DNA from: Candidatus Sulfomarinibacteraceae bacterium
GTDB lineage: Bacteria; Acidobacteriota; Thermoanaerobaculia; Thermoanaerobaculales; Sulfomarinibacteraceae
DNA length: 64,000 bases
Direction: 5' to 3'
Assembly: GCA_963741385.1 (NCBI GenBank)
Contig: CAVUHO010000003.1
Location: 134,833 to 198,832, forward strand
Shown here: positions 3,449-40,392 of the stretch, one piece after another
How the letters are laid out: each line of letters opens with the position of its first letter
Numbering within the stretch: the first letter of the stretch is position 1
Position numbers and translations under genes: made by a program
Notes under the pieces: generated by a model
The model's input: the letters and a program-made list of their open reading frames with translations, nothing else
The model's database searches: none
Told to the model about the DNA's origin: nothing

Positions 3449-6400
3449 CTAAGGAGTGGTCAATGACCACATTGTTGTGCCGCCGCTTTCAAATCCATCG
3501 GAGAAGATCAGGTCTCCCTTTCCGAAGAACAGATCGTCGAGCCCAGCCGTGAAGTTCTGGCCGCCCGGCGTCGTGAACCTGAATGCGCAGCGTGCGGAAG
3601 AGGCACCTGCTGTCGTCGTCATCGTATCGGAGACCTCGATCCATGTACCACCCGTGCCACCCATGAGGTCGCTGTTGATCGAATTTCCGAGACCGGTCCC
3701 GGGCGCGCCGCAAAGGGTGGTGGAAAAGAACTCGCAGCTTCTGGAATAGGAGATGAAGCTGGTCGTGGTCAACCGCATCCGACCGACGATGTCGTAGTTC
3801 GTGGAAGGCGTCACTTTGACACACTGGCTGATCTCGAAGAGCGTATTCGCCGCCAGCTGCATGATCTGGGTGGAGCCCGAGATGGTCGAGCCGTCGGCGT
3901 CGTCGGAATCGCGGATGATCTCCACCGGATCTGAAACGCTCCAGCCGTCGAGACCGGTGGACGGGCAGTCGAAGTGGCCGTTTGTGAAATTGTTGAAGGG
4001 ATCGGAGCGGAATGTCCGCAAGAAGTCGTCCCCGGCCGCTCCGTCGCCGGTGCCGTCGAGCGGGTTGCCGGCGATATCGCGGATGGAGGTCGATCCGCAG
4101 ACGAGCAATCGCACCTGCGAGCTCGGGAGGCTGCCGGTAGCGAGTGTGGCGGTGCGGGTGGGTTCGTCATACGACACGGCCGTCAAGTTGACCACCTCAT
4201 CGTCGCCGAGCGGTCCTCCGCACACTGCGGTCGAGAAGTCGCCGTCGGGGCCGGATCCGATCACCAGATAGTTGGCCGGGTTGGTGACATCGTCGCTGTC
4301 GGTGTCACCGGGTGGATCGCGCACGGGTTCGGAGAAGATGACCCGCAGCGAGGTGATTGGCGACAGCACGGTGCGGCACGCCTCGAGTTCGCCGGCGCCC
4401 GGCTCCGCCAGGAGAGAAGTTACGGTCGGCGGCGTGGTGTCGGTGGTGGTTTCCTCGTCGTCGGTGTTGTCCTCGGCATCGAGCTCCGTTTCGGTGGCTG
4501 TCACGCTCGCGGTGTTGGTGATGATCGGCGGTGGATCGGGATTGACCGTCACCGAGATCGTGTACTGCTTCGAACCGCCAGCCGCGAGGGTACCGAGGGT
4601 GCAGGTCGGCACACCGCTCTGGTCCTCGGCGCAACCGGAGGTGGAAACCAGTGTCACCGACGCGGGCAGGGTGTCCGTCACCTCGACGCCGGTGGCGTCG
4701 GAGGGCCCCTGGTTGGTGATCGTCAACGTGTAGACAAGGGTCGCCCCCGGGGACCACGGGTTGGGCGAGCCGGTCTTGTCGAGCACCAGATCGATCTCTC
4801 GGGTCACCGAGGTCAACTCCGAGGCACTGTCGTTTGCCGGCACCGTGTCGGTTTCGTTGACCGCGGTGACGGTGGCGGTGGAGTCGACGACATCGGTGCC
4901 GGAGGCCGTCGAGGCCGAGACCGTGAGGACGACCGTCAGCGTTTCACTGTCGCCTCTGGCGAGGCCACCGAGGGTCCACGTGGGATCTGCAAACGAACCG
5001 CCGCTCGGTGTCACCGAGTCGATGGTGACCCCCGTCGGCAGCGTGAGGGCGGTTGTGATCGTCACGCCCGAGGCATCGGAAGGCCCGTTGTTGGTGGCGG
5101 TCACGACGTAGGTGAGGTTACCCGCTCCGGAGCCCGCCACCACTGGGTCGAAGGACTCCGCGACGGTCACCTCGACATCCACCTCACGCGTCACCGAGGT
5201 GTTCTCCGAAGAGGAGTCGTTTGCGGAGGAGGTGTCGGTTTCGTTGACCGCGGTGATGGTGGCGGTGGAGTCGATGACATTGGTGCCGAAGGCCGCGGAG
5301 TTGTCCACGGTCAGCGTCACCGTCAAGGTTTCGCTTGCGCCCGCCGCGACATAACCGAGGGTCCAGGTGGGGTCCGCAAACGAACCAGCGCTCGGTGTCA
5401 CCGAGTCGACAGTGACCCCCTCGGGCAGGGTCAGGATCTCGGAGAGAGTCACCCCTGAAGCGTCGGATGGGCCGTTGTTGGTCGCGGTCACTGTGTAGAC
5501 CAGGTTGCCGGCGCCGGATCCCGCCACCACCGGGTCAATGGACTCGGTAGTCGAAACCTCGAGATCAACCTCTCGCGAAACCGAGGTGGTTTCGGTCGAG
5601 GTGTCGTTCGCGGTGGAGGTGTCGGTTTCGTTCAACGCCGTCACCGTCGCGGTCGAACCGATCACGTCGCTGCCGGCGACCGTCGAGGAGGCCACGGTGA
5701 GCGTCACCGTCAATGTCTCGCTCGCGCCGCTGGCGAGATCACCGATGGTCCAGGTGGGTCCGGCCCACGAACCGGCCCCGCTGGGCACCACGGAATCAGC
5801 CGAGGCCCCTGCCGGCAGCGTCAGGACCTCTGACACCGTGAGACCGGTCGCGTTGGCCGGTCCGTTGTTGGTGGCGGTCACGGTGTAGACCAGATTGCCG
5901 GCGCCGGATCCCGCCACCACCGGGTCGATCGACCCAGAGGTGGTCAGCTCGATGTCGACCCGGCGTGTCACCGATGTGGCCTCGGTGGCCGAGTTGTTGT
6001 CGGTGTCGGTCTCCGGTTCGTTGACTGCGGTGAGGGTAGCGGTGGTCGAGATGACGTCGGTGCCGGCCGCAGCCGAGCTCTGGACCGAGAGGACCAGCGT
6101 CAGGGTCTCGCTGGCGCCGTTGACCAGATCACCGATGGTCCATGTGGGGTCCGTCCACGTAGTGGCCCCGCTGGGCGTGATCGAGTCGATCGCCACTCCG
6201 GCGGGCAGGGTCAGGATATTGCTCGCCGTGACGCCGGATGCATCGCCGGGACCAATGTTGGTGGCGGTCACCACGTAGGTCAGATTGCCCGCACCGGAAC
6301 CGGCGATGACGGGATCGATGCTTTCGGCGGCGGCAATCTCGATATCCACGTTCCGCGTTACCGATGTGGCGACGGAGGAGGTGTCGTTCGCTGCGTTGGT

Positions 6401-9166
6401 GTCGGTTTCGTTCACAGCTGTTACGGTTGCGGTGGAGCCGATGACGTCGGTGCCGGCGGTCGTCGAGGCAGCCACAGTGAGAGTCACCGTCAATGTCGCG
6501 CTGGCGCCGGCGGCGAGGCTACCGAGGGTCCACGTGGGATCTGCAAACGAACCGCCGCTCGGTGTCACCGAGTCGATGGTGACCCCCGTCGGCAGCGTGA
6601 GGGTCTCTGAGATCGTCAGACCTGAGGCATCGCCCGGTCCCTTGTTGGCGGCGGTCACGGTGTAGACCAGGTTACCGGCACCGGAGCCGGCCATCACCGG
6701 GTCGATCGACTCGGTGGTGGTGAGTTCGATGTCGACCTGGCGTGTCACCGATGTGGCCTCGGTGGCCTCGTTGTTGTCGGTGACGGTCTCCGGCTGGGTG
6801 GTGGCGGTGATTGTGGCCGTGTTGGAGATGACATCGGTGCCGGCTGCCGTGGAGCTCTGCACCGTGAGGACCACGGTGAGGGTTGCGCTGGCGCCGTTGG
6901 CCAGATCACCGACGGTCCAGGTGGACGGAGCTGTCCAAACGGTGCCTGCACTGGGAGTGACCGAGTCCCTTGCCACTCCGGCTGGCAAGGTCAGGACGTT
7001 GCTCACCACGACGCCGGAGGCATCAACGGGACCGTTGTTGGTGGTGGTCACGGTGTAGGTGAGATTGCCTGCTGCGGAGCCGGCGACCACCGGGTCGACG
7101 GAGTCGACGACGGTCACGGCGATGTCGACGATTCTGATGTTGCCGAAAACGAGACCTGTCACGTCGACCCCACTCACAGTCGTGATGTCATGGACCGCGG
7201 GAAGCGTCGTTTGAACGGTGCCCGCCGGTGTGAGTTGGCGAACGAAATACCGTCCACCGCCCACGTTCGAGAAACCGAAAAGGCCTGCGAGGTCGGAGCC
7301 TGTCGAGTCAATTGAAACGTCGTCACCGATCCCGAAGTCCGGTGTGCCGTCGCCACCGTCCCGCCACAACTCGATCGTCACCATCGGAAACGCCGGGTCA
7401 CCGGTTGGGCTGCCGTCTCCGTTGAGGTCTTCGAAGACCAGTCCCGAAATGCTGACGGGTGTGAAGGGCCTGAGACCGGCGTCGATGGAGAGATCTTCGA
7501 TAGTGAAGGTCACATCGGCCTGACCGTCCGCCGGATCGAAGTTGCTGTCGAGTTCGAAGTCGCCGCCCTGTTCCTTGGGCGAAAGCTCGGATTCGGGCGG
7601 AAAACTGACCGTGAGCGTGTAGGAGCCAGGCAGCAGAGCGGGGAAGAGATACCTGCCGTTGACGTCGCTGGTGGTCGAAACACTCACCGACCCGGCGATC
7701 GCGACGGAAACGGCGTGGACACCCGGTTCGCCACCGTCCTGGATGCCGTCACTGTTGGTGTCGCTCCATACGAAGTCCCCAAGGTTGGCGGGAAGGTCTT
7801 CGGCGGCGATGACGCCCGCGGCCACCGTGACGGTTCCGGTGACCACGATTGGCGTACCGGCATTGGTGTTGTCCGCGATCACCGTCGCCGGAACGAACGA
7901 AGCCGAGTTCCCCTGATCCAACTGGACCGTGCTGACGGCCTGATCAATCTGATATGCGGAGGCGCCAGGGGTCTGGACGGTGTTGCCGGAGATGTCGAGG
8001 TCCAACGTGTAGACGCCGTTGTTTGCGTCGGCGTCGATCAGAATGCCCTCGCCAGTCGGGCTGGTGATGGTGTTTCCGGTGAGGACCACCTTCCAGAGAC
8101 CGCCGGAGCCGGTCGACGCGTCCTGTGGTCGCATCCGGATTCCGGCTCCGGAACCGGTGCCTGTGACGGTGTTGGCGTCGATCAGAACGTTGGCGATGAT
8201 GTCTGCGGAGGCCGAACCCCCATCGATGAAGATGCCGTTGTTTCCGGGGGCGGTGATCTGGTTGTTGCGGACGATGACGGACGTGGTCGTGGCGGCGCCC
8301 TCGAGGTCGACGAGGATGGCCTGTGACAGAGGGCTGGTGATCTGGTTGTCTTCAATGGCGATCGATGCGGAGGTGCCGACACTTCCGGTGTCTCCCAGGT
8401 CGACATCGATGGGGCTCCCCGATCCGGCGGCTGCATTGAACGTGTTGTTGATGATCCGACCGAGGATCACCGGCCCTGCCGGGCCGCTCGGCGACTGGAC
8501 GTCGATCTTGATGCCGTCGTCCTGCAGCATCGTAAAGGTGTTGTCCTCTGCGATGAGGTTGATGGACGGTGCGCCGGTGATCTCGATCTCGACCGCGTCC
8601 TGATTATCGGCGGGGGTTTCGAAACTGTTTCCCCGGACCTCGAGGGTGGTGACGGTGGACCCCGATACCGCCATCAGCACGCCAACGCCTCCGTATCCCG
8701 GGCCGAAGGTGTTGTCGAGCACGGTGACGACGCCGTCAATATTGATGAGTGAGAGGACACCGGTGGGAACGCCGGCGTCGGCATCGAGCACAAAACCGCT
8801 GACCGTTATGTTGCCCGCAAAGCCTGTAGCGCGGAACGCCGCACCCATTCCGCCGTCGACGGTGGCGCCCAGCGGGTTGGCTGCACGAATCGTCAGGTCG
8901 CCGACCGTGGGCGTTCCCAACGCGCTGCCCATCAGGCCGAGATCGACGCTCTCGTCGTACGAGCCGTCGTCAACCACGATTTCATCGCCTGGAGAGGCGT
9001 TGTTCACGGCCTCCTGGATCGTTGTGTAATCGTCAGAAACCGAGATCGTTGCGGCCTCTGAAAATGCTGGCAGCACCAGACATACGGCCATGATCGTCAG
9101 CGTCATCGACACACTCCAAATCGGGGGCTGAGGTGTCTTCGCGCATTCGTCGGAGTCGGTCGTCAT
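3449..9166 (-). CDS. Giant secreted surface protein with parallel beta-helix repeats, two SdrD-B/Cna-B-like units, seven DUF11-type repeats and Ig-like plus CBM-like C-terminal modules
   Basis: 1905-aa ORF with signal peptide MTLTIMAVCLVLPAFSEA (alternative start at 9106). It has NNxF/NNQIT beta-helix repeats and GDFVWSDTNSDGIQDGGEPG...NGRYLF...GSYTL. It contains seven units of about 130 aa each, with the core DPV.AGS.AGNL.YTVT..N.GP.DA.GV. The C-terminus is LIFSDGFESGGTTMWSLTTP. Confidence 0.85.
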   Translation of the reverse strand: MTTDSDECAKTPQPPIWSVSMTLTIMAVCLVLPAFSEAATISVSDDYTTIQEAVNNASPGDEIVVDDGSYDESVDLGLMGSALGTPTVGDLTIRAANPLGATVDGGMGAAFRATGFAGNITVSGFVLDADAGVPTGVLSLINIDGVVTVLDNTFGPGYGGVGVLMAVSGSTVTTLEVRGNSFETPADNQDAVEIEITGAPSINLIAEDNTFTMLQDDGIKIDVQSPSGPAGPVILGRIINNTFNAAAGSGSPIDVDLGDTGSVGTSASIAIEDNQITSPLSQAILVDLEGAATTTSVIVRNNQITAPGNNGIFIDGGSASADIIANVLIDANTVTGTGSGAGIRMRPQDASTGSGGLWKVVLTGNTITSPTGEGILIDADANNGVYTLDLDISGNTVQTPGASAYQIDQAVSTVQLDQGNSASFVPATVIADNTNAGTPIVVTGTVTVAAGVIAAEDLPANLGDFVWSDTNSDGIQDGGEPGVHAVSVAIAGSVSVSTTSDVNGRYLFPALLPGSYTLTVSFPPESELSPKEQGGDFELDSNFDPADGQADVTFTIEDLSIDAGLRPFTPVSISGLVFEDLNGDGSPTGDPAFPMVTIELWRDGGDGTPDFGIGDDVSIDSTGSDLAGLFGFSNVGGGRYFVRQLTPAGTVQTTLPAVHDITTVSGVDVTGLVFGNIRIVDIAVTVVDSVDPVVAGSAAGNLTYTVTTTNNGPVDASGVVVSNVLTLPAGVARDSVTPSAGTVWTAPSTWTVGDLANGASATLTVVLTVQSSTAAGTDVISNTATITATTQPETVTDNNEATEATSVTRQVDIELTTTESIDPVMAGSGAGNLVYTVTAANKGPGDASGLTISETLTLPTGVTIDSVTPSGGSFADPTWTLGSLAAGASATLTVTLTVAASTTAGTDVIGSTATVTAVNETDTNAANDTSSVATSVTRNVDIEIAAAESIDPVIAGSGAGNLTYVVTATNIGPGDASGVTASNILTLPAGVAIDSITPSGATTWTDPTWTIGDLVNGASETLTLVLSVQSSAAAGTDVISTTATLTAVNEPETDTDNNSATEATSVTRRVDIELTTSGSIDPVVAGSGAGNLVYTVTATNNGPANATGLTVSEVLTLPAGASADSVVPSGAGSWAGPTWTIGDLASGASETLTVTLTVASSTVAGSDVIGSTATVTALNETDTSTANDTSTETTSVSREVDLEVSTTESIDPVVAGSGAGNLVYTVTATNNGPSDASGVTLSEILTLPEGVTVDSVTPSAGSFADPTWTLGYVAAGASETLTVTLTVDNSAAFGTNVIDSTATITAVNETDTSSANDSSSENTSVTREVDVEVTVAESFDPVVAGSGAGNLTYVVTATNNGPSDASGVTITTALTLPTGVTIDSVTPSGGSFADPTWTLGGLARGDSETLTVVLTVSASTASGTDVVDSTATVTAVNETDTVPANDSASELTSVTREIDLVLDKTGSPNPWSPGATLVYTLTITNQGPSDATGVEVTDTLPASVTLVSTSGCAEDQSGVPTCTLGTLAAGGSKQYTISVTVNPDPPPIITNTASVTATETELDAEDNTDDEETTTDTTPPTVTSLLAEPGAGELEACRTVLSPITSLRVIFSEPVRDPPGDTDSDDVTNPANYLVIGSGPDGDFSTAVCGGPLGDDEVVNLTAVSYDEPTRTATLATGSLPSSQVRLLVCGSTSIRDIAGNPLDGTGDGAAGDDFLRTFRSDPFNNFTNGHFDCPSTGLDGWSVSDPVEIIRDSDDADGSTISGSTQIMQLAANTLFEISQCVKVTPSTNYDIVGRMRLTTTSFISYSRSCEFFSTTLCGAPGTGLGNSINSDLMGGTGGTWIEVSDTMTTTAGASSARCAFRFTTPGGQNFTAGLDDLFFGKGDLIFSDGFESGGTTMWSLTTP
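4400..7125. repeat. Intragenic tandem repeat of about 390 bp x7 (DUF11 units of the giant protein)
   Basis: The plus-strand shadow ORFs recur every 390 bp (5505, 5895, 6285). The protein repeat is 130 aa. Six units are highly similar and the seventh (about 4400-4790) is more diverged. Boundaries are approximate. Confidence 0.75.
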
Positions 9167-25850: not shown

Positions 25851-27341
25851 GTGCGCGAAAGGGAGCACCTCCGTTTGCGTTATCGCGCGATCGCGTCCTT
25901 CGTCGGGCCCATTCTGGTGGCGGCCGGCGTGGTGATGATGTTGCCGCTCCTGATCCTCCCGAGCCACCCGGAGGAGGTACTTCGGGCACCGGCGTTCGTC
26001 GTTCCGGCCGCCGGTCTGATCGTCGTCGGCGGCCTGTGCCACAGAGGCATTCGCCGTCCCGCCGGTATCGTGCTGTCGATCCAGGAGGGGGGCATCATCG
26101 TGGTGATCACCTGGATCGTGGTCATTCTCGTGTCAGCCTTGCCGTTCGTGTGGCTGTCAGGTCTCACATTTTCGCGGGCGGTGTTCGAAGCGGTGAGCGG
26201 GTGGACCACGACCGGGCTTTCGGTCGTCGACGTCAACACTGCGGGCCCCCTGATCCTCCTCTGGCGAAGCGTCATGCAGCTGGCCGGCGGAGCGGGGTTC
26301 GCCATCATCATGATGTCGTCGATTCTCGGACCCACCGGGGTCGGTTTCGCCACGGCCGAGGGCAGGAGCGACCAGCTCGTTCCCCACGTCCGCGCGTCGG
26401 CACGTCTCGTCCTCGCCATCTACTCCGTGTATGCGGTGGCCGGCGTCCTGGCCTATCGGCTGGCCGGCATGTCGTCCTTCGACGCGGTCAACCATGCGTT
26501 CGCGGCGATCTCCACCGGCGGTTTCTCCACGCGCGCGCAGAGCATCGGCTACTGGGATTCCGTGGCTGTCGAGGCAGTGACGTTGCCGCTGATGATTCTC
26601 GGCAACCTCAGCTTTGTTACGGCGTGGTTCCTTGTGCGCGCAAAGCTCCGTTCGGTTGCGAGAAACGGCGAGGTCCGGCTGCTGGCGATCGTGGTTCCCC
26701 TCGCCGCGGCCATGATGTTCTTCCTGACCTGTCGGACGATATACCCTCAGCTTGGGAAATCGATTCGGGTGGCGGTGTTCGAGACGGTCACTGCACTCAC
26801 AACGACAGGTTTCTCGACTGTCAGCTACGCCGACTGGAACGCTTCCGGCATCCTCCTGATGATCGCCTTGATGCTGATCGGCGGCGGCACCTGTTCGACT
26901 GCGGGTGGCATCAAACAGTTTCGGGTGCACCTCCTGGCCAGCACTCTGGTGTGGGACCTCAAACGAGCGCTCATGCCGCGCACGGCGGTCGTGGCGCGTC
27001 CCGTTTGGGAGGGCGACCAGCGGGTCTTCGTGGACGATGCGAGGGTGCGACAGGTATCGACCTTCGTCTCCCTGTACCTGATGTCGTTCGTCGTTGGCAC
27101 GATGGTCCTGTGCGCCTGTGGCTACAGCCTGGGCGAATCACTGTTCGAGTTCGCATCCGCCCTCGGAACGGTCGGGTTGTCGGTCGGGGTGACGTCTCCC
27201 AACATGCCGGACGTCGCGCTCTGGGTAGAGGCTGTCGGGATGTTTCTCGGTCGGTTGGAGTTCATGGTCGTGATCGTGAGTGCGCTCAAGCTCGCCAAAG
27301 ACATGCGTCGCGCAATGGCGAGAGAATCCCACGGCAGCTGA
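25851..27341 (+). CDS. trkH: TrkH/KtrB-family K+ transporter membrane subunit
   Basis: 496-aa multi-TM ORF (GTG start) with loop motifs SGWTTTGLSV, STGGFST, LTTTGFST and GGIKQFR. Confidence 0.85.
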   Translation: MREREHLRLRYRAIASFVGPILVAAGVVMMLPLLILPSHPEEVLRAPAFVVPAAGLIVVGGLCHRGIRRPAGIVLSIQEGGIIVVITWIVVILVSALPFVWLSGLTFSRAVFEAVSGWTTTGLSVVDVNTAGPLILLWRSVMQLAGGAGFAIIMMSSILGPTGVGFATAEGRSDQLVPHVRASARLVLAIYSVYAVAGVLAYRLAGMSSFDAVNHAFAAISTGGFSTRAQSIGYWDSVAVEAVTLPLMILGNLSFVTAWFLVRAKLRSVARNGEVRLLAIVVPLAAAMMFFLTCRTIYPQLGKSIRVAVFETVTALTTTGFSTVSYADWNASGILLMIALMLIGGGTCSTAGGIKQFRVHLLASTLVWDLKRALMPRTAVVARPVWEGDQRVFVDDARVRQVSTFVSLYLMSFVVGTMVLCACGYSLGESLFEFASALGTVGLSVGVTSPNMPDVALWVEAVGMFLGRLEFMVVIVSALKLAKDMRRAMARESHGS

Positions 27342-27345
27342 TGCC

Positions 27346-27969
27346 ATGTGCCTCGATACCCGCGTGACCCGCGAACCCAGGGTGCGAGCCCTTTGGGTCC
27401 TGGTGTGCGACCCGGGCGGCGCCAGCGACGGCAGGCCGTCACCGGGCAAAGACGAATGGGTTCACAGCGCGGTCCACTGTCTGCACCGGGCGGTGGACGG
27501 CGCGCATGACGTGGTCGTTGTCTGCTTCGGCGATGCATCGATCGGGAATCGAGCTGCATTGGTGGAACTGTGCGCCGCACTGAAGCAGAACTCTCATACC
27601 AGGGAGCGCCCCGTGCTCGCGTTGATCAGAGCGCGACATCGAGGACTGATCGAGGATCTGGAACGGGCGCAGGTCGATTTCGTTTGCGTCGTGGGAGAGG
27701 CCGATCTGGACCCGGCCGCCGTGCGGGCGATCCTCCAGGAGGTGGGGCCGGACGACGAGCTGCCACGTTTCCTCGACACACTCTGTCCGTTGATTCACTA
27801 CTGCGCCGATGACGCCGAGCACGAGCTTGCGGTGTGCGGGGGGTACCTGGACCGGCTCGTGCTGGGGGGTAATCGTTTGCGTCGTATCTGCGAGACCCGT
27901 GAACATCTCCGCTGCGAGTACTTTCTGAGTCCCAAGCCCAAACGAACGCGCCGGGCCGGTCACAGTTGA
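27346..27969 (+). CDS. Hypothetical protein with a receiver-like N-terminal pattern and a Cys-rich C-terminus
   Basis: ATG at 27346 within ORF 27280..27969. It has the codon bias of its neighbours. C-terminal cysteines: CPLIHYC...CGG...C...C. No recognised family. Confidence 0.45.
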   Translation: MCLDTRVTREPRVRALWVLVCDPGGASDGRPSPGKDEWVHSAVHCLHRAVDGAHDVVVVCFGDASIGNRAALVELCAALKQNSHTRERPVLALIRARHRGLIEDLERAQVDFVCVVGEADLDPAAVRAILQEVGPDDELPRFLDTLCPLIHYCADDAEHELAVCGGYLDRLVLGGNRLRRICETREHLRCEYFLSPKPKRTRRAGHS

Positions 27970-28023
27970 TCGGCGCCACGAACCCTGTTGCTGCATGAGC
28001 TGTCTGAAATCGGGGCAGATCGA

Positions 28024-28135
28024 TGCCAGGAGAAACGTCGTCAACTTTCTTGATCGTTGAGAGGAACATTGTCGGGAGAGCTGCGCGAGTCTCGGGGTGG
28101 CGAAGCAAACAAAGTTAAGAAAGTTTCTCCTGGCA
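28024..28135 (+). mobile_element. 112-bp MITE-like element, copy A
   Basis: Perfect 13-bp terminal inverted repeats TGCCAGGAGAAAC...GTTTCTCCTGGCA. Near-identical copies lie at 30350..30461 (same orientation) and 39454..39565 (inverted). All are followed by CCGATA. Confidence 0.8.
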
Positions 28136-28339
28136 CCGATACTGCGCGGCGTCGTGGTCGGCCGCAAGAACCACTATGGCTCGAAGTCGAAACGAGGCAC
28201 CGAGGTCGTGGCGCTCTTCTACACCCTCTTCGAAACCGCGAAGCTGAGCCAGATCGACCCGCGTGCCTACGTCACCCTGGCGGCGCACCGCGCCATCGCC
28301 GAGCACGGCGCAATCACCCTGCCCTCAGACCTCTCCTGA
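28136..28339 (+). pseudogene. IS66-family transposase C-terminal remnant
   Basis: The translation LRGVVVGRKNHYGSKSKRGTEVVALFYTLFETAKLSQIDPRAYV matches the conserved C-terminal GRKN...AKL..(I/V)(D/N)P..YL block of IS66 transposases. The N-terminal 400 aa or more are absent, and the fragment abuts MITE copy A. Confidence 0.65.
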
Positions 28340-28610
28340 TCTGCCTCGACTCAGATTCCAAGCACTCCCATCTGCGCCTGGCAAGACGGGGTAGGGCGAG
28401 GGCGTACGTTTGAATGAGGCAACCGCTGTTACCCCAAATCGAAGAACGGCACGGATAAAATAGCCTCCCTCGAATAGTGTGTCATTTTGCAACATCATTT
28501 CACTAGATCGCTGCCTCTCTAGCCTTAATCAATAACTGTTCTCAAATCTGTCAAACCATTTGACGCTATAGAGTAGAATTGCCCAACAAATAATCTGTAG
28601 GAGTTGGCTT

Positions 28611-29228
28611 ATGAGGTTTTTCCTGTTGGCCATCATCGCGGCGATCACCTTGGTCGGCCCAAATCATATTGCAGTCGCACAAGACGCTGAAATGCCGGTT
28701 CCTGGACTGGTGGTAAAGGACGCTGACGGAAAGGTGATGGGGCAGGTGGACGGGTTCTTGCCAGGGACTTCGGGTACGCTCTATCCAGTCGTTGTTTTCA
28801 ATATTGAAGGGAGTCTCGCCTTCTTAGTCTATCGGCCCTATGGTCTGATCGACGGAGTAGCGCACGCAGCTGGAAACTTGGGCGGTCCCACCGTTTATTT
28901 TTCAGGCTCCGACTGCACAGGGAATTCATACGTCAATATTGTTCACCCGGATGGAGTCGAAGCACAGTCCGGATATGCCTATGGCGTAGGTGGGCCAGAT
29001 CCGACTTCAGGGGAATACAAACTGTACCGCTCCAACACGCTGGCAGCCGGCATGTCCTTCGTGACCTCGAAATGGGAAGGTGGTACCTGCAGGAACTATG
29101 GCCCAACAGACCCGGACGTACTTTCCGCAGAGGAAGTTGTTCCCAACCCCCTCGCCGGTTTCCACGGCCCGACAACCGCCAACCCCGAACGCGTGCTGAC
29201 CATTGAGGGTGGCACGAGGCTTCCGTAA
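28611..29228 (+). CDS. Secreted hypothetical protein (paralog pair, member 1)
   Basis: 205-aa ORF after GGAG with signal peptide MRFFLLAIIAAITLVGPNHIAVAQ. The C-terminal 33 aa (SAEEVVPNPLAGFHGPTTANPERVLTIEGGTRLP) are nearly identical to the next gene. Lower G+C than the flanks. Confidence 0.7.
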   Translation: MRFFLLAIIAAITLVGPNHIAVAQDAEMPVPGLVVKDADGKVMGQVDGFLPGTSGTLYPVVVFNIEGSLAFLVYRPYGLIDGVAHAAGNLGGPTVYFSGSDCTGNSYVNIVHPDGVEAQSGYAYGVGGPDPTSGEYKLYRSNTLAAGMSFVTSKWEGGTCRNYGPTDPDVLSAEEVVPNPLAGFHGPTTANPERVLTIEGGTRLP

Positions 29229-29243
29229 AGAAAGGAGAATGCT

Positions 29244-29828
29244 ATGAGGTCATTTCTTTTCACCTTGGCAGCCATCTCTTTCCTGTTAACCCCAAGCCAA
29301 AGCGCGGATGCCCAAAGCGCAGAAATGCCGTTGCCGATTGCTGTCGTGAAGGACGCGGACGGGAAGTTGATTGCTCAAATCGTCGATATTGGGCCTAATG
29401 AGGGATCCGATCCCAAAGTACTACTCAACATAGGTGGCACCCCTGTCCCTTTTAGAGTTTCACCTCTCAAGGGGGTGTTTGAATCTCAAAGATTTGCCTA
29501 TTTCCCCTTTGAAAATTGCAGTGGTAGCCCAGCCATAACCCCTCCCCTAGCCATTGGTTGGGACTCCTTTTCTCAAACGAGTTTTGCGGTGGTTGGTCCG
29601 GACCCTGACTCTGGGACGTACAAGGTCTATCGATCGACTTCGCCAACTCCCGTGGCGTTTTCCCCTCTTTCCTATTGGATTGACGGATCCTGCGATGGCA
29701 TAACTGGGCAGACTTTGCTGTCTCCTGCAGAGGAAGTTGTTCCCAACCCCCTCGCAGGCTTCCACGGTCCGACAACCGCCAACCCCGAACGTGTATGGAC
29801 GATCGAGGGCGGCACGAGGCTCCCATGA
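29244..29828 (+). CDS. Secreted hypothetical protein (paralog pair, member 2)
   Basis: 194-aa ORF after AGGAGAA with signal peptide MRSFLFTLAAISFLLTPSQSADAQ. The N-terminal motif AEMP.P..VVKDADGK and the C-terminal block are shared with 28611..29228. Confidence 0.7.
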   Translation: MRSFLFTLAAISFLLTPSQSADAQSAEMPLPIAVVKDADGKLIAQIVDIGPNEGSDPKVLLNIGGTPVPFRVSPLKGVFESQRFAYFPFENCSGSPAITPPLAIGWDSFSQTSFAVVGPDPDSGTYKVYRSTSPTPVAFSPLSYWIDGSCDGITGQTLLSPAEEVVPNPLAGFHGPTTANPERVWTIEGGTRLP

Positions 29829-30295
29829 TGGACGCCAAACACCCAACCCACATCATCTGGAAACTGATTCCCCTGGTCGGCTTCATCCTTATTGCCGGAG
29901 TCATCCCCGCCGAAAGTGAAACCTGCAACGTCCCCTCCTCCAGCTATCCCTCAATCCAATCCGCCGTCAACGTCATCAACTGCACCGAGATCGTACTGAC
30001 GTCCGGCAACTTCTTCGGTGATGTCACCATCGGTCGTACGCTGACGGTTCAAGGGGTATCCAGTGCCTCAACCACCGTGTTTGGGAAAGTGACGGTCTCG
30101 GGTTCAGATACCCAGGCCACGCTCAAGGGACTGAAGATCGCAGTCGGTCCTGAAGATCTTCCCCACAATGGATTGGTGGTTGTGGGTGATGCTGAGGTGA
30201 TTCCTGATGACCTTGTGATTGGATCGACTGATTTGATCTTCGAGGATGGTTTTGAGCGCGGGAATACGACGGCTTGGTCGAACACGGTGTCCTAA
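29825..30295 (+). CDS. Small secreted or membrane-anchored protein sharing N- and C-terminal modules with the giant surface protein
   Basis: ATGA overlap with the upstream stop. A hydrophobic N-terminus is followed by SYPSIQSAVNVINCTEIVLTSGNFFGDV (compare DYTTIQEAVNNASPGDEIVVDDGSYDESV in 3449..9166). The C-terminus is DLIFEDGFERGNTTAWSNTVS (compare DLIFSDGFESGGTTMWSLTTP). Confidence 0.65.
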   Translation: MMDAKHPTHIIWKLIPLVGFILIAGVIPAESETCNVPSSSYPSIQSAVNVINCTEIVLTSGNFFGDVTIGRTLTVQGVSSASTTVFGKVTVSGSDTQATLKGLKIAVGPEDLPHNGLVVVGDAEVIPDDLVIGSTDLIFEDGFERGNTTAWSNTVS

Positions 30296-30349
30296 GGTTT
30301 TGGATTGGAGAACGTGCCAATGAGGCATTCCCATAGTGGTGCCTAGTGG

Positions 30350-30461
30350 TGCCAGGAGAAACGTTGTTAACTTTCTTGATCGTTGAGAGGAACATTGTCG
30401 GGAAAGCTGCGCGAGTCTCGGGGTGGCGAAGCAAACAAAGTTAAAAAAGTTTCTCCTGGCA
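30350..30461 (+). mobile_element. 112-bp MITE-like element, copy B
   Basis: Same 13-bp TIRs and internal sequence as copy A, with a few substitutions. Same orientation. Confidence 0.8.
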
Positions 30462-30496
30462 CCGATATAGAGTACTACTAAGCCGCATCGGCATCA

Positions 30497-30555
30497 GTGC
30501 CAGGTACATAGTTACGGAGTTGTGAAATGTAACTGCGGAACTCCGTACCTGGCAC
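30497..30555. repeat. 59-bp REP-like imperfect palindrome R1
   Basis: GTGCCAGGTAC...GTACCTGGCAC ends. Aligns along its full length to the reverse complement of R2 (32597..32655). It lies 3 nt beyond the stop of the 30559..32454 gene. Confidence 0.75.
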
Positions 30556-30558
30556 CGA

Positions 30559-32454
30559 TTAGGGAGTCCCGCCGGTTGCGGCGACGCGACGGCCGACCCG
30601 GCGCGGCGCCGGGTTGAGCCCGAGTGCCCTCTTGATCCGGTTGCCGTCCGCCAACGAGATCCCCGCCGAAGGGATGACGATGGTCTGGTCGTCACCGCCC
30701 ATCGGCGGCAGGCCCTGCGGCTGGTTGTTGACAATGATCGCCGCCACGGCGCCCGCATCTTGTGCGTTCTTCACCTTTTCGACGAACAGGCACGTACCGC
30801 GGTCGATGACGGCGATCTTACCCGTGATCTCGCTGGCGTTGACCAGCGGTTCGCAACCCAGGATCGGCGCATTCGAGCCGTCGCGGACCACGGCCAGATC
30901 TCCGGAGACCCCCACAACGCTCACCGGCGGCCCGAACTGGGCCGTCTGTACCGCGTAACCCCCAGCCAGGCTCGGAGGTGAGTTGATGAGAAGCCGCGGG
31001 GCGTTGCCGAGAATCTGAGGCGCTGCATCGACAGAGGCCGGCCCATCCCAGACCAACCGCCCGGTGTTGACGGCGGAGGTCCGACGTTCGTCGTTGGTCA
31101 TGACGTTCCAGTGCAGACCGATCTCCGAGTCGAAGGTGTAGACGCTGTAGATGCCGGGTTGCCGCGGGAGGCCGGCAAAAAACGGCAGCGACCCGGTGCT
31201 GGGATCAACGAAGCTCTGAAACCCCAGCCCGTGCGCGATCTCGTGGAGGGCCACCATGGCGAAGGAGGCCTGGCCGCTCGGCGTGTTGCCGTCCAAACCA
31301 TAGTAGAAGCGGTAGGACGGCGCCAGGCAGCCCTCGTCAATTCGGCTGTTGAAGTTGGCCACAACGTCGCCGGTGTTCGAGGGCCGGTTATTTTCGGTCG
31401 TGCTGAGGTTTTCGCCCGCCAGGGCTTCGGCGAGAGCGCCGGAATACCAGGTTCCCTGGCGAGGGGCGTTCGCGAAATCGGAAAACAGGTAGCGCGTACC
31501 GGCCGCCGCCAGAACCGCCCCTTCATCGGGATCGCAGTCGAACTCGTCGAAGGCTGCGTCAATGTTGATCTCGATCTCGCTGCCGAGGAGAGTCCCCCAG
31601 ACGTCCGCAGCCCACTGCAAAGCGGCAAGCCGCTGTCCACCAACAGTGGTCCCTCCCGGGTTGGCGGGAGACTCGGGGACAACGGTGGCATCGTTGAAGC
31701 CTTCGCCACTGGAGTCTTGAACCCTGATGGTCACGGTAGAGGAGCCGGCGGGCCAGCCAATGTCCTGGAAAAGCGGGAGCGTGAGGTCGACCTCGCCGAA
31801 GCCGACGCCCGGCGACGCGGTCGGCTCCATCAGAAGGTCAGGGGTGGCCGAAAGGTCCCAGTGGGAAATCGAGGAGCCCAGCTCGAGCGGATCCGGGTTG
31901 TAGAGCAACGGCCGCCCCAGCGTGTCGGCGCCGGCCAGACGAGTCGGGTCGATGGCGAGGCTCGCGGAGACCTCGGCCGCCTTGAAGGACAGCTGCGACG
32001 GTGGCGCGACCGCCAACAGCCCGAGGGAGAGCGGGACATCGATTCCGGCCTTTGCCGAACCGAGGCCCATCAGCTTTTCCACCGCTTGCACATGGTCAAC
32101 ACACGACGTCGCGAACGAGCCGTCCGCTCGCACCTGGACCATGAAGACGTGCCGAAAGCGACCGTCGAGGTCAACCCCTCTCCCGCCGTTGTCGAGATCG
32201 AAGACCTGCAGGCCATCAGTTGAACGGCTGAGGGCGTTCATGATGGCGCCCGACAGCGGGCCAGATTCCTCGCGAGGTTCCGCTGGAACAACCTGATTGG
32301 GCCCGTCATCAGTCGCGGCTCTCACGACCGAAGGAGCGCCGTCGGGACCCGGCGATGCGGCCGCCACTCCCGCGAGCGGCACCACACAGATGGCGATGCA
32401 GCACAGTATGGTCACTCGGAAACGGAGATTGACTCCAGCGTGCACTCGTTTCAT
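30559..32454 (-). CDS. Secreted zinc metalloprotease-like protein with HExxHxxG motif and a C-terminal PA (protease-associated) domain
   Basis: 631-aa ORF with signal peptide ...CVVPLAGVAAASP. VALHEIAHGLGF motif. PA-domain pattern GKIAVIDRGTCLFVEKVKNAQDAGAVAAIIVNN. Confidence 0.75.
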   Translation of the reverse strand: MKRVHAGVNLRFRVTILCCIAICVVPLAGVAAASPGPDGAPSVVRAATDDGPNQVVPAEPREESGPLSGAIMNALSRSTDGLQVFDLDNGGRGVDLDGRFRHVFMVQVRADGSFATSCVDHVQAVEKLMGLGSAKAGIDVPLSLGLLAVAPPSQLSFKAAEVSASLAIDPTRLAGADTLGRPLLYNPDPLELGSSISHWDLSATPDLLMEPTASPGVGFGEVDLTLPLFQDIGWPAGSSTVTIRVQDSSGEGFNDATVVPESPANPGGTTVGGQRLAALQWAADVWGTLLGSEIEINIDAAFDEFDCDPDEGAVLAAAGTRYLFSDFANAPRQGTWYSGALAEALAGENLSTTENNRPSNTGDVVANFNSRIDEGCLAPSYRFYYGLDGNTPSGQASFAMVALHEIAHGLGFQSFVDPSTGSLPFFAGLPRQPGIYSVYTFDSEIGLHWNVMTNDERRTSAVNTGRLVWDGPASVDAAPQILGNAPRLLINSPPSLAGGYAVQTAQFGPPVSVVGVSGDLAVVRDGSNAPILGCEPLVNASEITGKIAVIDRGTCLFVEKVKNAQDAGAVAAIIVNNQPQGLPPMGGDDQTIVIPSAGISLADGNRIKRALGLNPAPRRVGRRVAATGGTP

Positions 32455-32596
32455 TTCAAACTCCTCGACGACCCCATGTCAGCATACTCAAACACGGCTC
32501 ACTCTGGGAACCACACGAACGGCATCTCGAATTTCATCCCCTCACAACGTTGTCACGCATTCGAAGCCCCGCAAGGGCGTCGAATGAATGCAATGG

Positions 32597-32655
32597 GTGC
32601 CAGGTCCGGAGTTACGCAGTTACAGATCACAACTCCGTAACTCCGTACCTGGCAC
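32597..32655. repeat. 59-bp REP-like imperfect palindrome R2 (inverted relative to R1)
   Basis: Its reverse complement aligns to R1 with a handful of substitutions. It lies 143 nt upstream of the start of the 30559..32454 gene and is followed by CGAT, like R1 and the MITEs. Confidence 0.75.
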
Positions 32656-32903
32656 CGATGTTCTGCCACCATGCTTTCGTGTGTGGCGACTTTGCCGGAA
32701 CTGGCGCCTTCGAGACCCCACGCGATTGCGTTGGCGAACCGGACGCGTTCGGTCAGCGAATCAAACACGGCGGGGGAAAGGAGCACGCAGGCCGCGCGGC
32801 CGGCACCGAAACCGATCCCACCCAAGCCAACCGCCGCGTGGCGATCCTCATCAAGGACAAGGCCAAGTGACCTCGACCCGGAGGGCCGGCTGGGCAACGC
32901 CTC

Positions 32904-38342: not shown

Positions 38343-39569
38343 CGCGAGCCCTTCGTGGCCCATGAACGTGTGCCACTGTCGTTCACCATCGGAGTTCAGC
38401 TTGACGGCAAAACCGTTATCCCCTCCACCGTGTGAATGAACGGGCGTTCTCCACGAGGCATCGCTGGCACCACTACTACCGGCATCCTCGATGAAATTCA
38501 GGATGTTGCGGCCGAGAACACCATCGACGACCTCCTGCGGGTACCCACGCTCGGTGAGACGCCGGCCGATCCTCGAGAAAGCATCCTCGCGGTTGAGGCT
38601 GGCCGGCACGTACCTCCCTCCAGCCTGAAGATCGGAGCCGATGCCAACGTGATCGGGACCGAGATGCCCGATCAACTCGGCGATCTGGTCGACCATCAAC
38701 TCCAGTGCATCCGCTTCCGGATCACCTGCCAGCAGATCTGAGGCGTTGAACGACACCCAGACTGATCCGCCGGTCTCCCCGAGCTTCGCCACGACGTCGT
38801 CAGGCAGGTTGAATGCCGTAGGGCTCACCTCAGCGGTGAGGCTGTGGGTCGCGACCACCGGCGCTCTCGATTGTTTGATGATTACCAGTTTCTGCGGATG
38901 ACTCAGGTGGGTGATGTCGATCGAGACGCCGGTTTCATTCATGGCCTCCACGATCCGTTTCCCGAATGGCGTCAATTCGTTCGATCGATCGCCGACACCG
39001 AAGAGCCCGTCGGGGTCCTTCTCCACGAGACCGATGATTCGCACCCCGAGATTTCGAAACCGCTCCACCCTCCCTGGATCTCCATCGAAAATCCTGTCAA
39101 ACCACTCGATGGAGAACAGGAGGCGAAGGTCGTTCTCTGGAGCGCTGCCCGGCTTCTCGTGCGGACCGACGATCGAAAAACCCGCGTCCGTCGCCGCAGC
39201 CCGCCGAAGCTCCGTCATTTCGCTGACAATGCGGGACTCCACATCCGATGTTTTCGATCGGTCGAGGGGCAGTGGAACCACCACCGTATCGATGCCGCGA
39301 GATCGCACTGCCGCGAGCCGTGAGAGGTCCAGCCGGCCGCCCCTAATACCAATGACGTCGTGGTTGTGGCCGTCGACCACCGGGCTCGGCTCGCCCGCGA
39401 TCGCAGGCGGGCACAACGAAAAGACGATCAACGCGGCTGCGTATCGGTATCGGTGCCAGGAGAAACTTTCTGAACTTTGTTTGCGTCGCCACCCCGAGAC
39501 CCGCGCAACTCTCTCGACAATTTTCTTCCTGGCGATCAAGAAAGTTAACAACGTTTCTCCTGGCATCAC
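38268..39569 (-). CDS. Peptidase M19 (membrane dipeptidase) family protein with both ends remodelled by mobile elements
   Basis: M19 motifs DGHNHD, ITHLSH, VVATHS and GIGSDL. The first 38 codons or so lie in MITE copy C and the last 25 codons or so lie in the right end of the RAYT unit. The native start and stop are therefore uncertain. Confidence 0.6.
   Translation of the reverse strand: MMPGETLLTFLIARKKIVERVARVSGWRRKQSSESFSWHRYRYAAALIVFSLCPPAIAGEPSPVVDGHNHDVIGIRGGRLDLSRLAAVRSRGIDTVVVPLPLDRSKTSDVESRIVSEMTELRRAAATDAGFSIVGPHEKPGSAPENDLRLLFSIEWFDRIFDGDPGRVERFRNLGVRIIGLVEKDPDGLFGVGDRSNELTPFGKRIVEAMNETGVSIDITHLSHPQKLVIIKQSRAPVVATHSLTAEVSPTAFNLPDDVVAKLGETGGSVWVSFNASDLLAGDPEADALELMVDQIAELIGHLGPDHVGIGSDLQAGGRYVPASLNREDAFSRIGRRLTERGYPQEVVDGVLGRNILNFIEDAGSSGASDASWRTPVHSHGGGDNGFAVKLNSDGERQWHTFMGHEGLAKRYQKGTRYGGYDVIFSRPQSPPS
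39454..39565 (-). mobile_element. 112-bp MITE-like element, copy C (inverted)
   Basis: Reverse complement of copies A and B, with the same 13-bp TIRs. The CCGATA flank is duplicated (TATCGGTATCGG at 39442..39453). Confidence 0.8.
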
Positions 39570-39575
39570 TAAGTC

Positions 39576-39863: not shown

Positions 39864-39976
39864 GTATCGAACATACCTCAGATAGCGGCTTGAGGAAAAC
39901 GTTTCGATCGAGCAGATTTGGCAACGAAGGGCGACCCGAGTGTATCCAGCCGACAGCGATTTTTTTCGTAAGATGT

Positions 39977-39998
39977 TGGTGCGAAAGGGGGGGCTCGA
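39977..39998. repeat. Direct repeat of the tRNA-Leu 3' end (att-like scar)
   Basis: TGGTGCGAAAGGGGGGgCTCGA versus 40155..40176 TGGTGCGAAAGGGGGGaCTCGA, 21 of 22 identical. It lies 157 bp beyond the tRNA 3' end. Confidence 0.65.
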
Positions 39999-40153
39999 TC
40001 GTGCCGAGAGGCAGCGGTTTGTGGTCGTTGCCGAGGTGGAAGGTTGGGGTGGTGGTCGGCCTACGACCATCCGGCGGCTCCGGCGTGAGGCCGTGCCCCG
40101 GGGCATGGCCAACCCCCCGGGGGAGTTGGTGAGCACTCGAGCGGTGAGGAGAA

Positions 40154-40241
<88 letters not shown>

Positions 40242-40392
40242 ACACAGGCGGGAGATGCATGGTAGATCAGGGGAGGAAGACCGTCAAGGCGGTTAGCGGT
40301 GCAATTCGACCGGAAATCGGTTCGGACCGCGTCGGCTCGGCTAAGATCCTCGCAGGTGGAGAATCACGGCGACATCTGAAAGGGGGCACGAA

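Follow-up and report, generated by a model that had tools for sequence, protein, structure and literature searches.

Evidence for horizontal acquisition of a predicted exported-protein operon bracketed by REPIN-like elements in a Candidatus Sulfomarinibacteraceae bacterium

Between two direct copies of a palindromic element (A1 and A2), the window, i.e., the whole analyzed stretch of 64,000 nucleotides from a Candidatus Sulfomarinibacteraceae bacterium, contains an IS66 3' stub, an AT-rich spacer and a three-gene operon (p1, p2 and p3; Table 1). With a probability of roughly 0.6, this segment is best explained as a horizontally acquired operon for exported proteins in a plastic stretch of the chromosome, the bracket of A elements reflecting local element spread and rearrangement and being no proof that these elements brought in the operon. 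Horizontal acquisition as such is well supported, since the composition is deviant, the operon was not found in the relatives searched and the module occurs in unrelated metagenome contexts. Positions 28408–30341 would thus represent the acquired accessory operon with its own AT-rich leader. An IS66 element may once have inserted just upstream of the operon, its 3' 266 nt being left, and the chromosomal stretch around the operon appears to be repeat-rich and highly plastic. An earlier note, made from the letters alone, had described two same-orientation MITE copies bracketing an IS66 fragment, a spacer and three genes; all of these components were recovered, and their positions agreed with the note to within a few bases.

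Table 1. Features of the operon locus and of related elements in the window.
Feature	Position	Strand	Remarks
Surface protein, 1905 aa (Beta_helix, SdrD_B, 7 x DUF11)	3449..9166	-	C-terminal tag shared with p3
REPIN-like palindromic element, copy A1	28016..28141	+	97% identical to A2; hairpin prediction -47.6 kcal/mol (RNA parameters)
IS66-family 3' stub	28142..28407	+	last ~65 transposase codons, stop 28337-28339, intact right terminus ...GGGCGTAC
AT-rich spacer, presumed operon promoter/leader	28408..28610	+	41.6% G+C (measured 28409-28610), ~200 nt
p1, 205-aa predicted exported protein, unannotated beta-rich family	28611..29228	+	AGGAG 8 nt upstream of start
p2, 194-aa p1 paralogue	29244..29828	+	44% identity to p1
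p3, 156-aa predicted exported protein with C-terminal tag ...LIFEDGFERGNTTAWSNTVS	29825..30295	+	ATGA start/stop overlap with p2
REPIN-like element, copy A2	30342..30467	+	direct copy of A1; hairpin prediction -51.8 kcal/mol (RNA parameters)
MITE-B, second palindromic type, REP-like	30492..30560	.	24 nt after A2, directly after protease stop
REPIN-like element, copy A3	39447..39571	-	inverted, 89% identical

First, the composition of the cassette deviates from that of the genome. A windowed profile bore out the low G+C described in the earlier note, with 53.2% as compared to a genome mean of 64.4% (SD 3.2%); equal-sized windows that low made up 0.6%. GC3 of the cassette genes was 0.53–0.65, compared to 0.82 in the neighboring TrkH gene. 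The AT-rich spacer, claimed to span about 270 bp, proved to be real but shorter, because its first ~70 nt belong to the G+C-rich IS66 terminus. The spacer showed no similarity to the regions upstream of homologous cassettes, a simple scan revealed no sigma-70 consensus on its + strand, and promoter and terminator scans were at chance level.

Second, a DNA search of 40 relatives, including 24 members of the same genus, did not detect the operon. A p1-family profile search was negative in all 19 genus genomes and gave a high score in 1 other of 400 class genomes. In a scan of 185,579 species genomes, no relative of p3 and one relative of p1 (in a Ca. Sulfomarinibacteraceae MAG) were detected. 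The proposed horizontal acquisition is thereby strengthened; distant relatives did not show this cassette at the corresponding position, and its composition was not inconspicuous. The empty site expected in relatives did not turn up in the 40 genomes. Protein searches of the 24 genus genomes detected neither TrkH nor the left-flank ORF, so that the flanks are accessory, too; the protease gene lies at another locus in the closest relative, G016.

Third, the operon is a conserved module. Eight distinct metagenome contexts were compared, and in six of these (L022/23, L024/25, L030, L031/32, L036 and L037) one to three p1-type genes adjoin a p3-type gene; the flanks of the module differ in every context. 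In L022, for example, the three-gene module is located between replication/integration genes (integrase, HTH_17, DUF3987 primase) and further small genes. Since genes of the two types were also seen without each other (L026 and L029; L033–35), their products need not form an obligatory complex. Exact-pattern scans of JGI metagenomes with the left flank and the conserved 3' block yielded no matches.

The IS66 stub shares 94% DNA identity with the 3' end of an element from the relative G024 (contig C25), the ORFs of which match PF03050 DDE_Tnp_IS66 (1.5e-19 and 1.6e-17). The stub alone matched PF13817 below the cut-off (E 0.0024), and PF03050 was not found anywhere in the assembly of this genome. 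Of a complete IS66 element, with tnpA, tnpB, tnpC and an 8-bp target duplication, 266 nt are left here. All IS66 copies share the terminus GTAC. Three solo IS66 3' stubs similar to 28142–28407 are present in this genome, and another one adjoins the closest cassette homologue, in L030.

The A elements are about 126 nt long, with arms of 30–33 nt that are 82–90% complementary, and they lack coding capacity. Five copies are present in the genome. The direct copies aligned at 28024–28141 and 30350–30467 show 97% identity in the same orientation, with mismatches at 3–4 positions. The right end of A1 is fixed by the IS66 homology, which begins at 28142. Its left end is degenerate (GATGCCAGG), with GATGCC and without the upstream GTGCC partial repeat, while A2 has an intact left end with the partial repeat upstream (GTGGTGCC TAGTGGTGCC). 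A1 is located 47 nt past the stop of the left-flank ORF (27969), A2 in the gap before the protease stop, and A3 just upstream of a dipeptidase gene; the remaining two copies, which are diverged, lie on contig C9. A target duplication was observed only at copy A5 on C9 (12-nt flanking direct repeat CAATTCTGGATG), while A1–A4 lack flanking direct repeats of at least 7 nt. Rfam searches with the palindromes returned only sub-threshold hairpin look-alikes.

As the probable partner of the A elements, a transposase of the Y1/HUH type was identified. The A termini GTGCCAGGAGAAAC..TTAAC (14 nt) correspond to the inverted ends of a 1.1-kb Y1 transposase unit (G000:C3:23869-24970) about 110 kb upstream of the window on the same contig; both ends, at 23869 (+) and 24970 (-), carry GTGCCAGGAGAAACAAAGTTAAC. 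The unit encodes a 332-aa PF01797 protein (E 1.1e-10) with 36% identity to the Y1 transposase of the window. It is the sole element with A-type ends, and no DDE transposase with such ends was found. Likewise, MITE-B has an inverted partner at 32592–32660, and its termini GTGCCAGGTAC(GG) are the ends of the Y1 transposase unit of the window (37.2–38.3 kb). Because the 14-nt termini are common to the A elements and the Y1/HUH transposase unit, and four of the five copies lack a target duplication, the label "MITE" was given up: the elements are better read as REPIN-like, non-autonomous partners of a Y1 (IS200/RAYT-type) transposase. Low-G+C surroundings were four times as frequent at the ends of these repeat families as at random sites (15.7% vs. 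3.9%). REPIN-like elements gather in extragenic and foreign low-G+C DNA; the bracket is therefore best read as their local spread and rearrangement around a foreign insert.

The earlier note had suggested a MITE-mobilized composite unit, which the analysis did not sustain. The left flank of A1 and the right flank of A2 share no direct repeat. Y1 enzymes insert without target duplication; therefore, the duplication test cannot decide on composite mobilization, and the bracket neither proves the improbable mobilization by A repeats nor speaks against it. A Y1 transposase could have excised or copied the 2.45-kb unit of IS66 stub and operon as single-stranded DNA and inserted it here, acting on the outer ends of A1 (left) and A2 (right), which are on the same strand. 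Such a move is unlikely, even though A1 and A2 are direct, nearly identical copies, a cognate Y1 transposase is encoded in the genome, and the missing target duplication is compatible with Y1 enzymes. MITE-flanked units have been reported to be mobilizable in other bacteria (PMC10969869). In addition, the second direct A pair, on C9, has analogous content, namely a secreted-protein gene and IS66 fragments (tnpA and a truncated tnpB, PF05717). Four of the five genomic A copies thus form two direct pairs, each enclosing an IS66 fragment and a secreted-protein gene, and this order exceeds what simple accumulation predicts. Against the move stands that searches for the bracketed A1-to-A2 unit at further sites and in other genomes and contigs were negative, and that p3 is not followed by an A element in the closest cassette (L030, 86% DNA identity). 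A1 is degenerate at its left end, and we are aware of no case in which a RAYT-type enzyme was shown to move a composite.

Alternatively, a circle bearing the IS66 stub, the operon and a single A copy may have entered by homologous recombination at a lone resident A copy, located where the left-flank ORF and the protease gene converge with their 3' ends, the crossover duplicating A. Direct orientation is the expected product of such an event, and A1 and A2 occupy typical extragenic positions after gene ends. As 15 of 76 genomes carry A-type elements, these are native to the family, and a resident target is therefore plausible. Nevertheless, this route is also improbable: the predicted single-copy empty site is kept by no relative, as both flanks are absent from the genus, and an A element was not seen on any other module-carrying contig.

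An assembly artefact, with a fragment of another population member joined at the 126-nt repeats, is very unlikely. The repeats bound a low-G+C insert in what appears to be a draft or metagenome-derived assembly of 17 contigs, and all homologues are on short metagenome contigs. However, the low-G+C DNA begins at the IS66 terminus and not at the repeat, A1 and A2 differ and are therefore not collapsed copies, the contig is 606 kb long with an estimated contamination of the assembly of 0.14%, and p3 bears the tag of the host clade itself. An ancestral, vertically inherited locus with a low G+C due to function and not to origin has hardly any likelihood: the module is below its surroundings in G+C also in the other contexts examined (e.g., below the integrase/primase backbone in L022), so that low G+C is a property of the module itself, but the distribution is patchy, with no finding in the 24 genus genomes and one in the 64 family genomes searched, and the flanks change from context to context.

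The statement that none of the three proteins has a recognizable function was upheld, as p1, p2 and p3 had no match in Pfam, NCBIfam, PHROGs or PADLOC; viral contigs contained no relatives. As described in the earlier note, p1 and p2 are paralogous. For p1, 27 close homologues, all metagenomic, were found, and a profile search with the family returned 313 clusters at 50% identity. Members are predicted to be beta-rich single-domain proteins with two conserved cysteines, in which the N- and C-terminal segments are conserved and the center varies. The AlphaFold2 model of p1 was beta-rich and confident (pLDDT 88.3, pTM 0.79), and Foldseek searches of PDB and BFVD gave no match (best E ~0.1, TM at most 0.23); scattered weak matches to beta-trefoils, lipocalins and propellers were not counted as evidence. 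Profile searches against PDB yielded nothing under E 0.27. p1 and p2 share near-invariant C-terminal 35 residues and a 98-nt DNA block with 89% identity. The 33 encoded residues hardly vary among members of the family, which explains most of this DNA identity, and a need for gene conversion was rejected. The idea that p1 is the missing body of a domain whose first strand forms the tag of p3 was rejected as well, the p1 profile matching only p1 and p2 in the genome.

For p3, 28 homologues with 50–86% identity were found, and the family alignment shows no variation in the tag columns; the AlphaFold2 model of p3 (pLDDT 39.7) was not interpretable. The earlier note had stated that p3 mimics both ends of the giant adhesin, here the 1905-aa surface protein. 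The similarity was confirmed at the N-terminus (33% identity, E 5e-5) and at the extreme C-terminus (68% identity, E 6e-8), but it proved to be generic. The N-terminal likeness (67 residues) consists of a signal peptide and Y-x-[ST]-I-Q-x-A-V-N just upstream of the Beta_helix domain, a motif usual at the start of beta-helix proteins; p3 itself had no Pfam match to PF13229, and its low-pLDDT model does not place it among beta-helix proteins. The C-terminal match is the tag F-x-D-G-F-E-x-G-x4-W, about 10 residues or less from the C-terminus (in p3 ...IFEDGFERGNTTAWSNTVS), which is borne by about 18 ORFs for exported proteins in this genome, p3 included. The motif, DGFExG..WS, is abundant in several Thermoanaerobaculia genomes and rare elsewhere in the phylum, and it also occurs at N-termini and between domains. 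A literature search on the tag motif returned nothing relevant.

The predicted models of p1 and p3 begin with N-terminal hydrophobic helices, the p1 leader ends in an invariant A-Q, and cysteine pairs are conserved; on these grounds, p1, p2 and p3 are probably exported through Sec. The three genes lie close together, and the ATGA overlap of p2 and p3 suggests translational coupling. Most likely, the three proteins would cooperate outside the cytoplasm, forming a surface-associated or secreted accessory module in which p3 may provide tag-dependent targeting. In a bolder and quite unlikely version, direct REPIN-like pairs would be the ends of a Y1-driven composite transposon, moving as single-stranded circles and carrying a new three-part extracellular system in which the p3 tag docks p1 and p2 at the surface.

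RAYT-type transposases are usually viewed as domesticated enzymes that spread nothing but their own short repeats. If REPIN-like pairs were able to move genes, these transposases would be agents of gene transfer. The p1/p2 family represents a sizeable unannotated exported group whose confident predicted structure has no match in the structure libraries searched, and p3 is a compact mobile example of the unexplained Thermoanaerobaculia tag that might be used as a minimal substrate in a search for the tag-reading machinery. At present, the locus is a well-documented, functionally unexplained accessory islet.

The locus shares features with several known systems. The stub resembles IS66 elements in its tnpC 3' end and terminal repeat, but here fragments occur alone and the DDE domain is lacking from the assembly. 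Small integrase/primase integrative elements with 'moron'-like cargo are similar to L022, whereas the module in the window comes without integrase, primase or attachment site. In p3 and about 17 further exported proteins, the tag is a short conserved motif whose distance from the C-terminus is fixed, as are the sorting signals of the LPXTG/sortase, PEP-CTERM/exosortase, GlyGly-CTERM/rhombosortase and T9SS C-terminal domain systems. It differs from these in that neither a transmembrane helix nor a basic tail follows and in that it is also N-terminal or interdomain; no model in Pfam or NCBIfam matched the motif, and we know of no processing enzyme for it.

In Acinetobacter, class 1 integrons between identical MITEs form MITE-flanked mobilizable units (PMC10969869). 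The A bracket is similar to such units in that near-identical short non-coding elements with inverted-repeat ends surround accessory genes and the composition of the cargo is unlike that of the host. The Acinetobacter MITEs reportedly derive from DDE-type insertion sequences, the composites are said to have a target duplication, and the same MITEs reportedly surround different integrons in several strains. Here, in contrast, the ends are of the Y1/HUH type, flanking duplication is absent and the unit was seen once.

REPINs are short palindromic, hairpin-forming, extragenic elements whose sequence also flanks a single Y1 (IS200-like) transposase gene, the RAYT (Bertels and Rainey 2011, PMC3116915). 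The A elements share with them extragenic location, clustered copies and absence of target duplication, and also the inverted repeat ends around a single-copy Y1 gene and a palindromic doublet with a long predicted hairpin. To our knowledge, REPIN pairs enclosing genes have not been described. In contrast to REPINs, which number tens to hundreds per genome, five full A copies and about nine further solo ends of related types are present, and the A element is longer, with 126 nt and a non-palindromic center of about 60 nt. Unlike RAYTs, the transposases of this genome carry a C-terminal DnaA-like helix-turn-helix extension.

All components listed in the earlier note were found in the window, and its claim of a deviant base composition was borne out. 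Windowed G+C dropped from 62–70% outside to 47–58% across about 28.3–30.5 kb. The stretch 28409-30343 had 53.2% G+C, whereas windows of equal size averaged 64.4% (SD 3.2%) over the genome, with only 0.6% of them equally low. GC3 was 0.60 for p1, 0.53 for p2 and 0.65 for p3, and 0.82 for the adjoining TrkH gene. An AT-rich spacer was present (41.6% G+C, computed for 28409-28610), but it spans about 200 nt instead of the approximately 270 nt noted earlier, since 28340-28407 is the G+C-rich end of IS66.

The start of the low-G+C DNA coincided exactly with the right terminus of this IS66 stub, which was set at 28407 because all copies cease matching at one point, i.e., at a common ...GGGCG(A/T)...GTAC. 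By itself, the 80-aa ORF of the stub matched PF13817 under the cut-off (E 0.0024). At the DNA level, the stub was 94% identical to contig C25 of genome G024 and 83–89% identical to copies in three further genus genomes, and the G024 copy runs on into ORFs matching PF03050 (DDE_Tnp_IS66; 1.5e-19 and 1.6e-17). No IS66 DDE domain was found in the whole assembly of the source genome G000, nor was a full IS66 copy assembled. Solo 3' stubs with one shared terminus, 90–270 nt long, recurred in the window, on C10 and C15 and on the metagenome contig L030; what persists is in each case the right end.

Coordinates of the features, in window numbering (window = G000:C3:134833-198832; genome of 4.77 Mb, 17 contigs) unless prefixed, and metagenome loci (L) with p1-type or p3-type genes
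Feature	Location	Details
Tag-coding stretch	3449-3538	minus strand
A1 element	28024-28141	direct
IS66 3' stub	28142-28407	
AT-rich spacer	28408-28610	
p1	28611-29228	good ribosome-binding site
p2	29244-29828	good ribosome-binding site
Tag-coding stretch	30220-30295	
A2 element	30350-30467	direct
PA-domain metalloprotease gene	30559-32454	minus strand; bracketed by inverted B-type palindromes 30492-30560, 32592-32660
Y1 transposase	37298-38302	
A3 element, third copy	39447-39571	inverted; 89% identity
Solo IS66 3' stub	G000:C10:28517-28654	DNA similarity
Solo IS66 3' stub	G000:C15:151709-151797	DNA similarity
Solo IS66 3' stub, more distant	G000 contig C6	
IS66 3' stub	L030:1342-1512	adjoins closest cassette homologue
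Module	L022/L023	193, 188, 162 aa
Module	L024/L025	212, 200, 202, 150 aa
Module	L030, L031/L032, L036	p1-type + p3-type
Module	L037	gene order reversed
p1-type genes alone	L026, L029	
p3-type genes alone	L033-L035	

The genes p1, p2 and p3 are intact, conserved and co-oriented. p1 and p2 are paralogues (44% identity). A search of 5.8 billion proteins gave only about 27 close homologues for each of the p1-type and p3-type families; none of these is named, and all lie on metagenome contigs no longer than 10 kb. In the p1 family, the leader ends in an invariant A-Q, the mature N-terminus EMPVPxLVVKDADGKV is conserved (mean column conservation of 0.78), the centre is variable (0.39–0.47) but for two invariant cysteines, and the C-terminal 35 residues are near-invariant (0.78). 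The AlphaFold2 model of p1 was confident (pLDDT of 88.3, pTM of 0.79, about 13 strands), but Foldseek retrieved no structural match in PDB or BFVD (best E about 0.1, TM ≤ 0.23), and a profile search of PDB sequences gave none. Against 1.84 billion cluster representatives, the p1 profile matched 313 clusters at E ≤ 1e-3, including 31 of close relatives. The others were mostly exported proteins of 170–220 aa, with no Pfam domain in those sampled; a few were giant proteins with several occurrences of the N-terminal motif, some of them overlapping CarboxypepD_reg-like repeats. The matched proteins P0094-P0197 represent an uncharacterised superfamily of unannotated exported proteins. They follow the pattern A-Q...[IV]P.FV[VL]KD..G.V[IV]G.V, then F...C.G..Y and a late Cys, and occur in tandem (P0126) and fused (P0150) forms as well.

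The start of p3 at 29825 overlaps the p2 stop (ATGA). Its homologues show 50–86% identity, a higher conservation than for p1 and p2, and both an F..F-E-G....W tail and two cysteines close to the N-terminus are invariant. The structure model of p3 was uninformative (pLDDT of 39.7). p3 had been described as mimicking both ends of the giant adhesin, a 1905-aa Beta_helix/SdrD_B/DUF11 protein (3449-9166). Similarity was indeed observed at both ends: residues 4–70 (33% identity, E 5e-5) align with the signal peptide and with a short motif, Y-x-[ST]-I-Q-x-A-V-N, that precedes the Beta_helix domain, and the last 25 residues are 68% identical (E 6e-8). The C-terminal match, however, is not special to the adhesin, since this tag, in the form [IL]F.DGFE.G....WS plus about four residues, is found on about 18 exported proteins. 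The motif [DNSEG][GDNK]FE.G..W had 28 matches in the genome, 18 of them ending 0–10 residues before the stop codon; it also occurs directly behind signal peptides and between domains. Tag carriers include FG-GAP and beta-helix proteins, a glycosidase-like protein, a metalloprotease and an LRR protein, among others. A profile of the tag tail gave at least 26 matches in each of several Thermoanaerobaculia genomes and 0–4 in most other Acidobacteriota sampled; the literature search retrieved no paper describing the tag, and no existing profile of it was found.

No catalytic or known domain was detected in p1, p2 or p3, in line with the earlier statement that none has a recognisable function, and no defence-system or phage-protein profile matched. 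The three proteins are probably exported via Sec and would form extracytoplasmic disulfides. p1/p2 may act jointly with p3, because the genes are adjacent in six of eight contexts and the p2-p3 overlap is conserved. A variable accessory factor, surface-exposed or secreted, would fit the combination of conserved ends with a variable centre, tandem paralogues whose number varies, and location on mobile DNA; a housekeeping enzyme would not. That p1–p3 form a surface-associated complex targeted via the p3 tag is a tentative suggestion.

The module, i.e., one to three p1-type genes adjoining one p3-type gene, was not found in 24 genus genomes by DNA search, nor in 19 of them by profile search. Among 400 genomes sampled from the class, a profile search revealed it in one other, and no copy turned up among IMG/VR viral contigs. 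In L022, the neighbours of the module are a tyrosine integrase, an HTH_17 protein and a DUF3987/DnaB-like primase, and its G+C (48–56%) is once more below that of the integrase/primase backbone (60–64%). L030 harbors the closest cassette, whose DNA is 86% identical across p3 and the 3' end of p2, as well as an IS66 3' stub (77% identity) 700 nt downstream of p3 and oriented toward the cassette, and a repeat resembling the ends of the window Y1 unit. L024 carries one B-type palindrome, and on both contigs the tag ends neighbour proteins too. In L029, a Ca. Sulfomarinibacteraceae MAG (Thermoanaerobaculales) corresponding to G258, a tRNA-Arg gene and an integrase fragment lie about 2–3 kb from the p1-type gene. 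Since L030 and L024 carry matching repeats and the tag, and L029 belongs to the same family as G000, the module appears to circulate among relatives of the lineage that have its repeats and tag.

A repeat search of the window showed A1 and A2 to be a direct 118-nt pair of 97% identity. Beyond the window, just two copies exist in the genome, both on C9, in direct orientation 1.6 kb apart and with 74–76% identity. All five share TGCCAGGAGAAAC...GTTTCTCCTGGCA and an outer CCGATA at the right, and the outermost ATCGGTGCCAGG is common to A and B elements. Only A5 on C9 is flanked by a symmetrically placed 12-nt direct repeat (CAATTCTGGATG); none was found at A1–A4, nor between the A1 left flank and the A2 right flank. 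IS200/IS605-family enzymes leave no target duplication, so these absences are neutral with regard to movement of the bracketed unit. The window Y1 transposase matched PF01797 (E 1.2e-11), and the starts of the two 69-nt B-type palindromes resemble the ends of its unit at 37.2–38.3 kb. A genome search with the A-type terminus yielded a second unit of 1.1 kb (G000:C3:23869-24970), about 110 kb upstream of the window, with inverted ends GTGCCAGGAGAAACAAAGTTAAC and a 332-aa product (PF01797, E 1.1e-10; 36% identity to the window enzyme). It shares 14 terminal bases and a downstream TTAAC with the A element, and a partial GTGCC repeat lies about 10 nt outside the end of A2 and of both Y1 units. The 332-aa protein is likely the cognate enzyme of the A elements, which, because their termini coincide with those of its unit, are best described as REPIN-like elements, non-autonomous and partnered with a RAYT-type Y1 transposase. 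Together with about 290 nt of its gene, the left end of this unit also forms the beginning of a repeat, 2.5 kb or longer, at C11:355, C12:11457 and C3:9926 (97–99% identical). A-like elements occurred in 15 of 76 other family genomes (69–76% identity, or ends alone conserved); the family is native to the lineage, and the 89–97% subfamily is specific to G000. A repeat near A3 (39929-40290) is 74% identical to L037:152-448, on a module-bearing contig, and 89% identical to a portion of G024:C25 next to the G024 IS66 copy.

These observations are best read as an operon of foreign origin located in a hot spot of accumulation and rearrangement of REPIN-like elements and an IS66 (probability of about 0.6). 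A more than accidental link to the repeats is suggested by the arrangement of four of the five A copies as two direct pairs, and by the C9 pair (31370-31485, 32976-33091), which also brackets IS66 pieces and an exported-protein gene. Inside it (G000:C9:31370-33091) lie IS66 tnpA and a tnpB (PF05717, E 1.8e-21) that the left A element cuts off at position 62 of the 101-position profile, together with a gene, apparently frameshifted, for an exported protein with the tag at its end (...LLADGFESGNTSAWS). The C9 layout, with A5 as the right copy, parallels the window bracket. True composite movement by the Y1 enzyme is nevertheless improbable: the bracketed unit was found at no other place, the nearest cassette is without an A element, A1 has a degenerate left end, and the entire neighbourhood is a patchwork. 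For the left-flank ORF (cysteine-rich, ending at 27969) and TrkH (25851-27341; E ≤ 1e-60), no counterpart was found in the 24 other genus genomes searched; the left flank (25851-27969), though G+C-normal, is thus accessory too. The metalloprotease gene seems to have been relocated, since in G016, the closest relative, the 88% identical gene lies at another locus, syntenic with G000 C14:478289-480061. Moreover, repeat-family ends lie in low-G+C surroundings in 15.7% of cases, as compared to 3.9% of random sites, the sites being non-independent. Insertion through recombination at a resident A copy is just as unlikely.

Two points are of moderate interest, namely gene carriage by Y1-type repeat pairs and the role of the p1, p2 and p3 proteins. 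The locus is an islet of accessory genes surrounded by small mobile repeats, and in how it works it resembles the MITE-flanked accessory units reviewed in PMC10969869. The A elements differ from classical MITEs in having neither target duplications nor a DDE partner. With the REPIN/RAYT systems described in PMC3116915 they share the sequence in common with a flanked Y1 transposase gene, the predicted hairpin and the extragenic position, but differ in that their copy number is not high.
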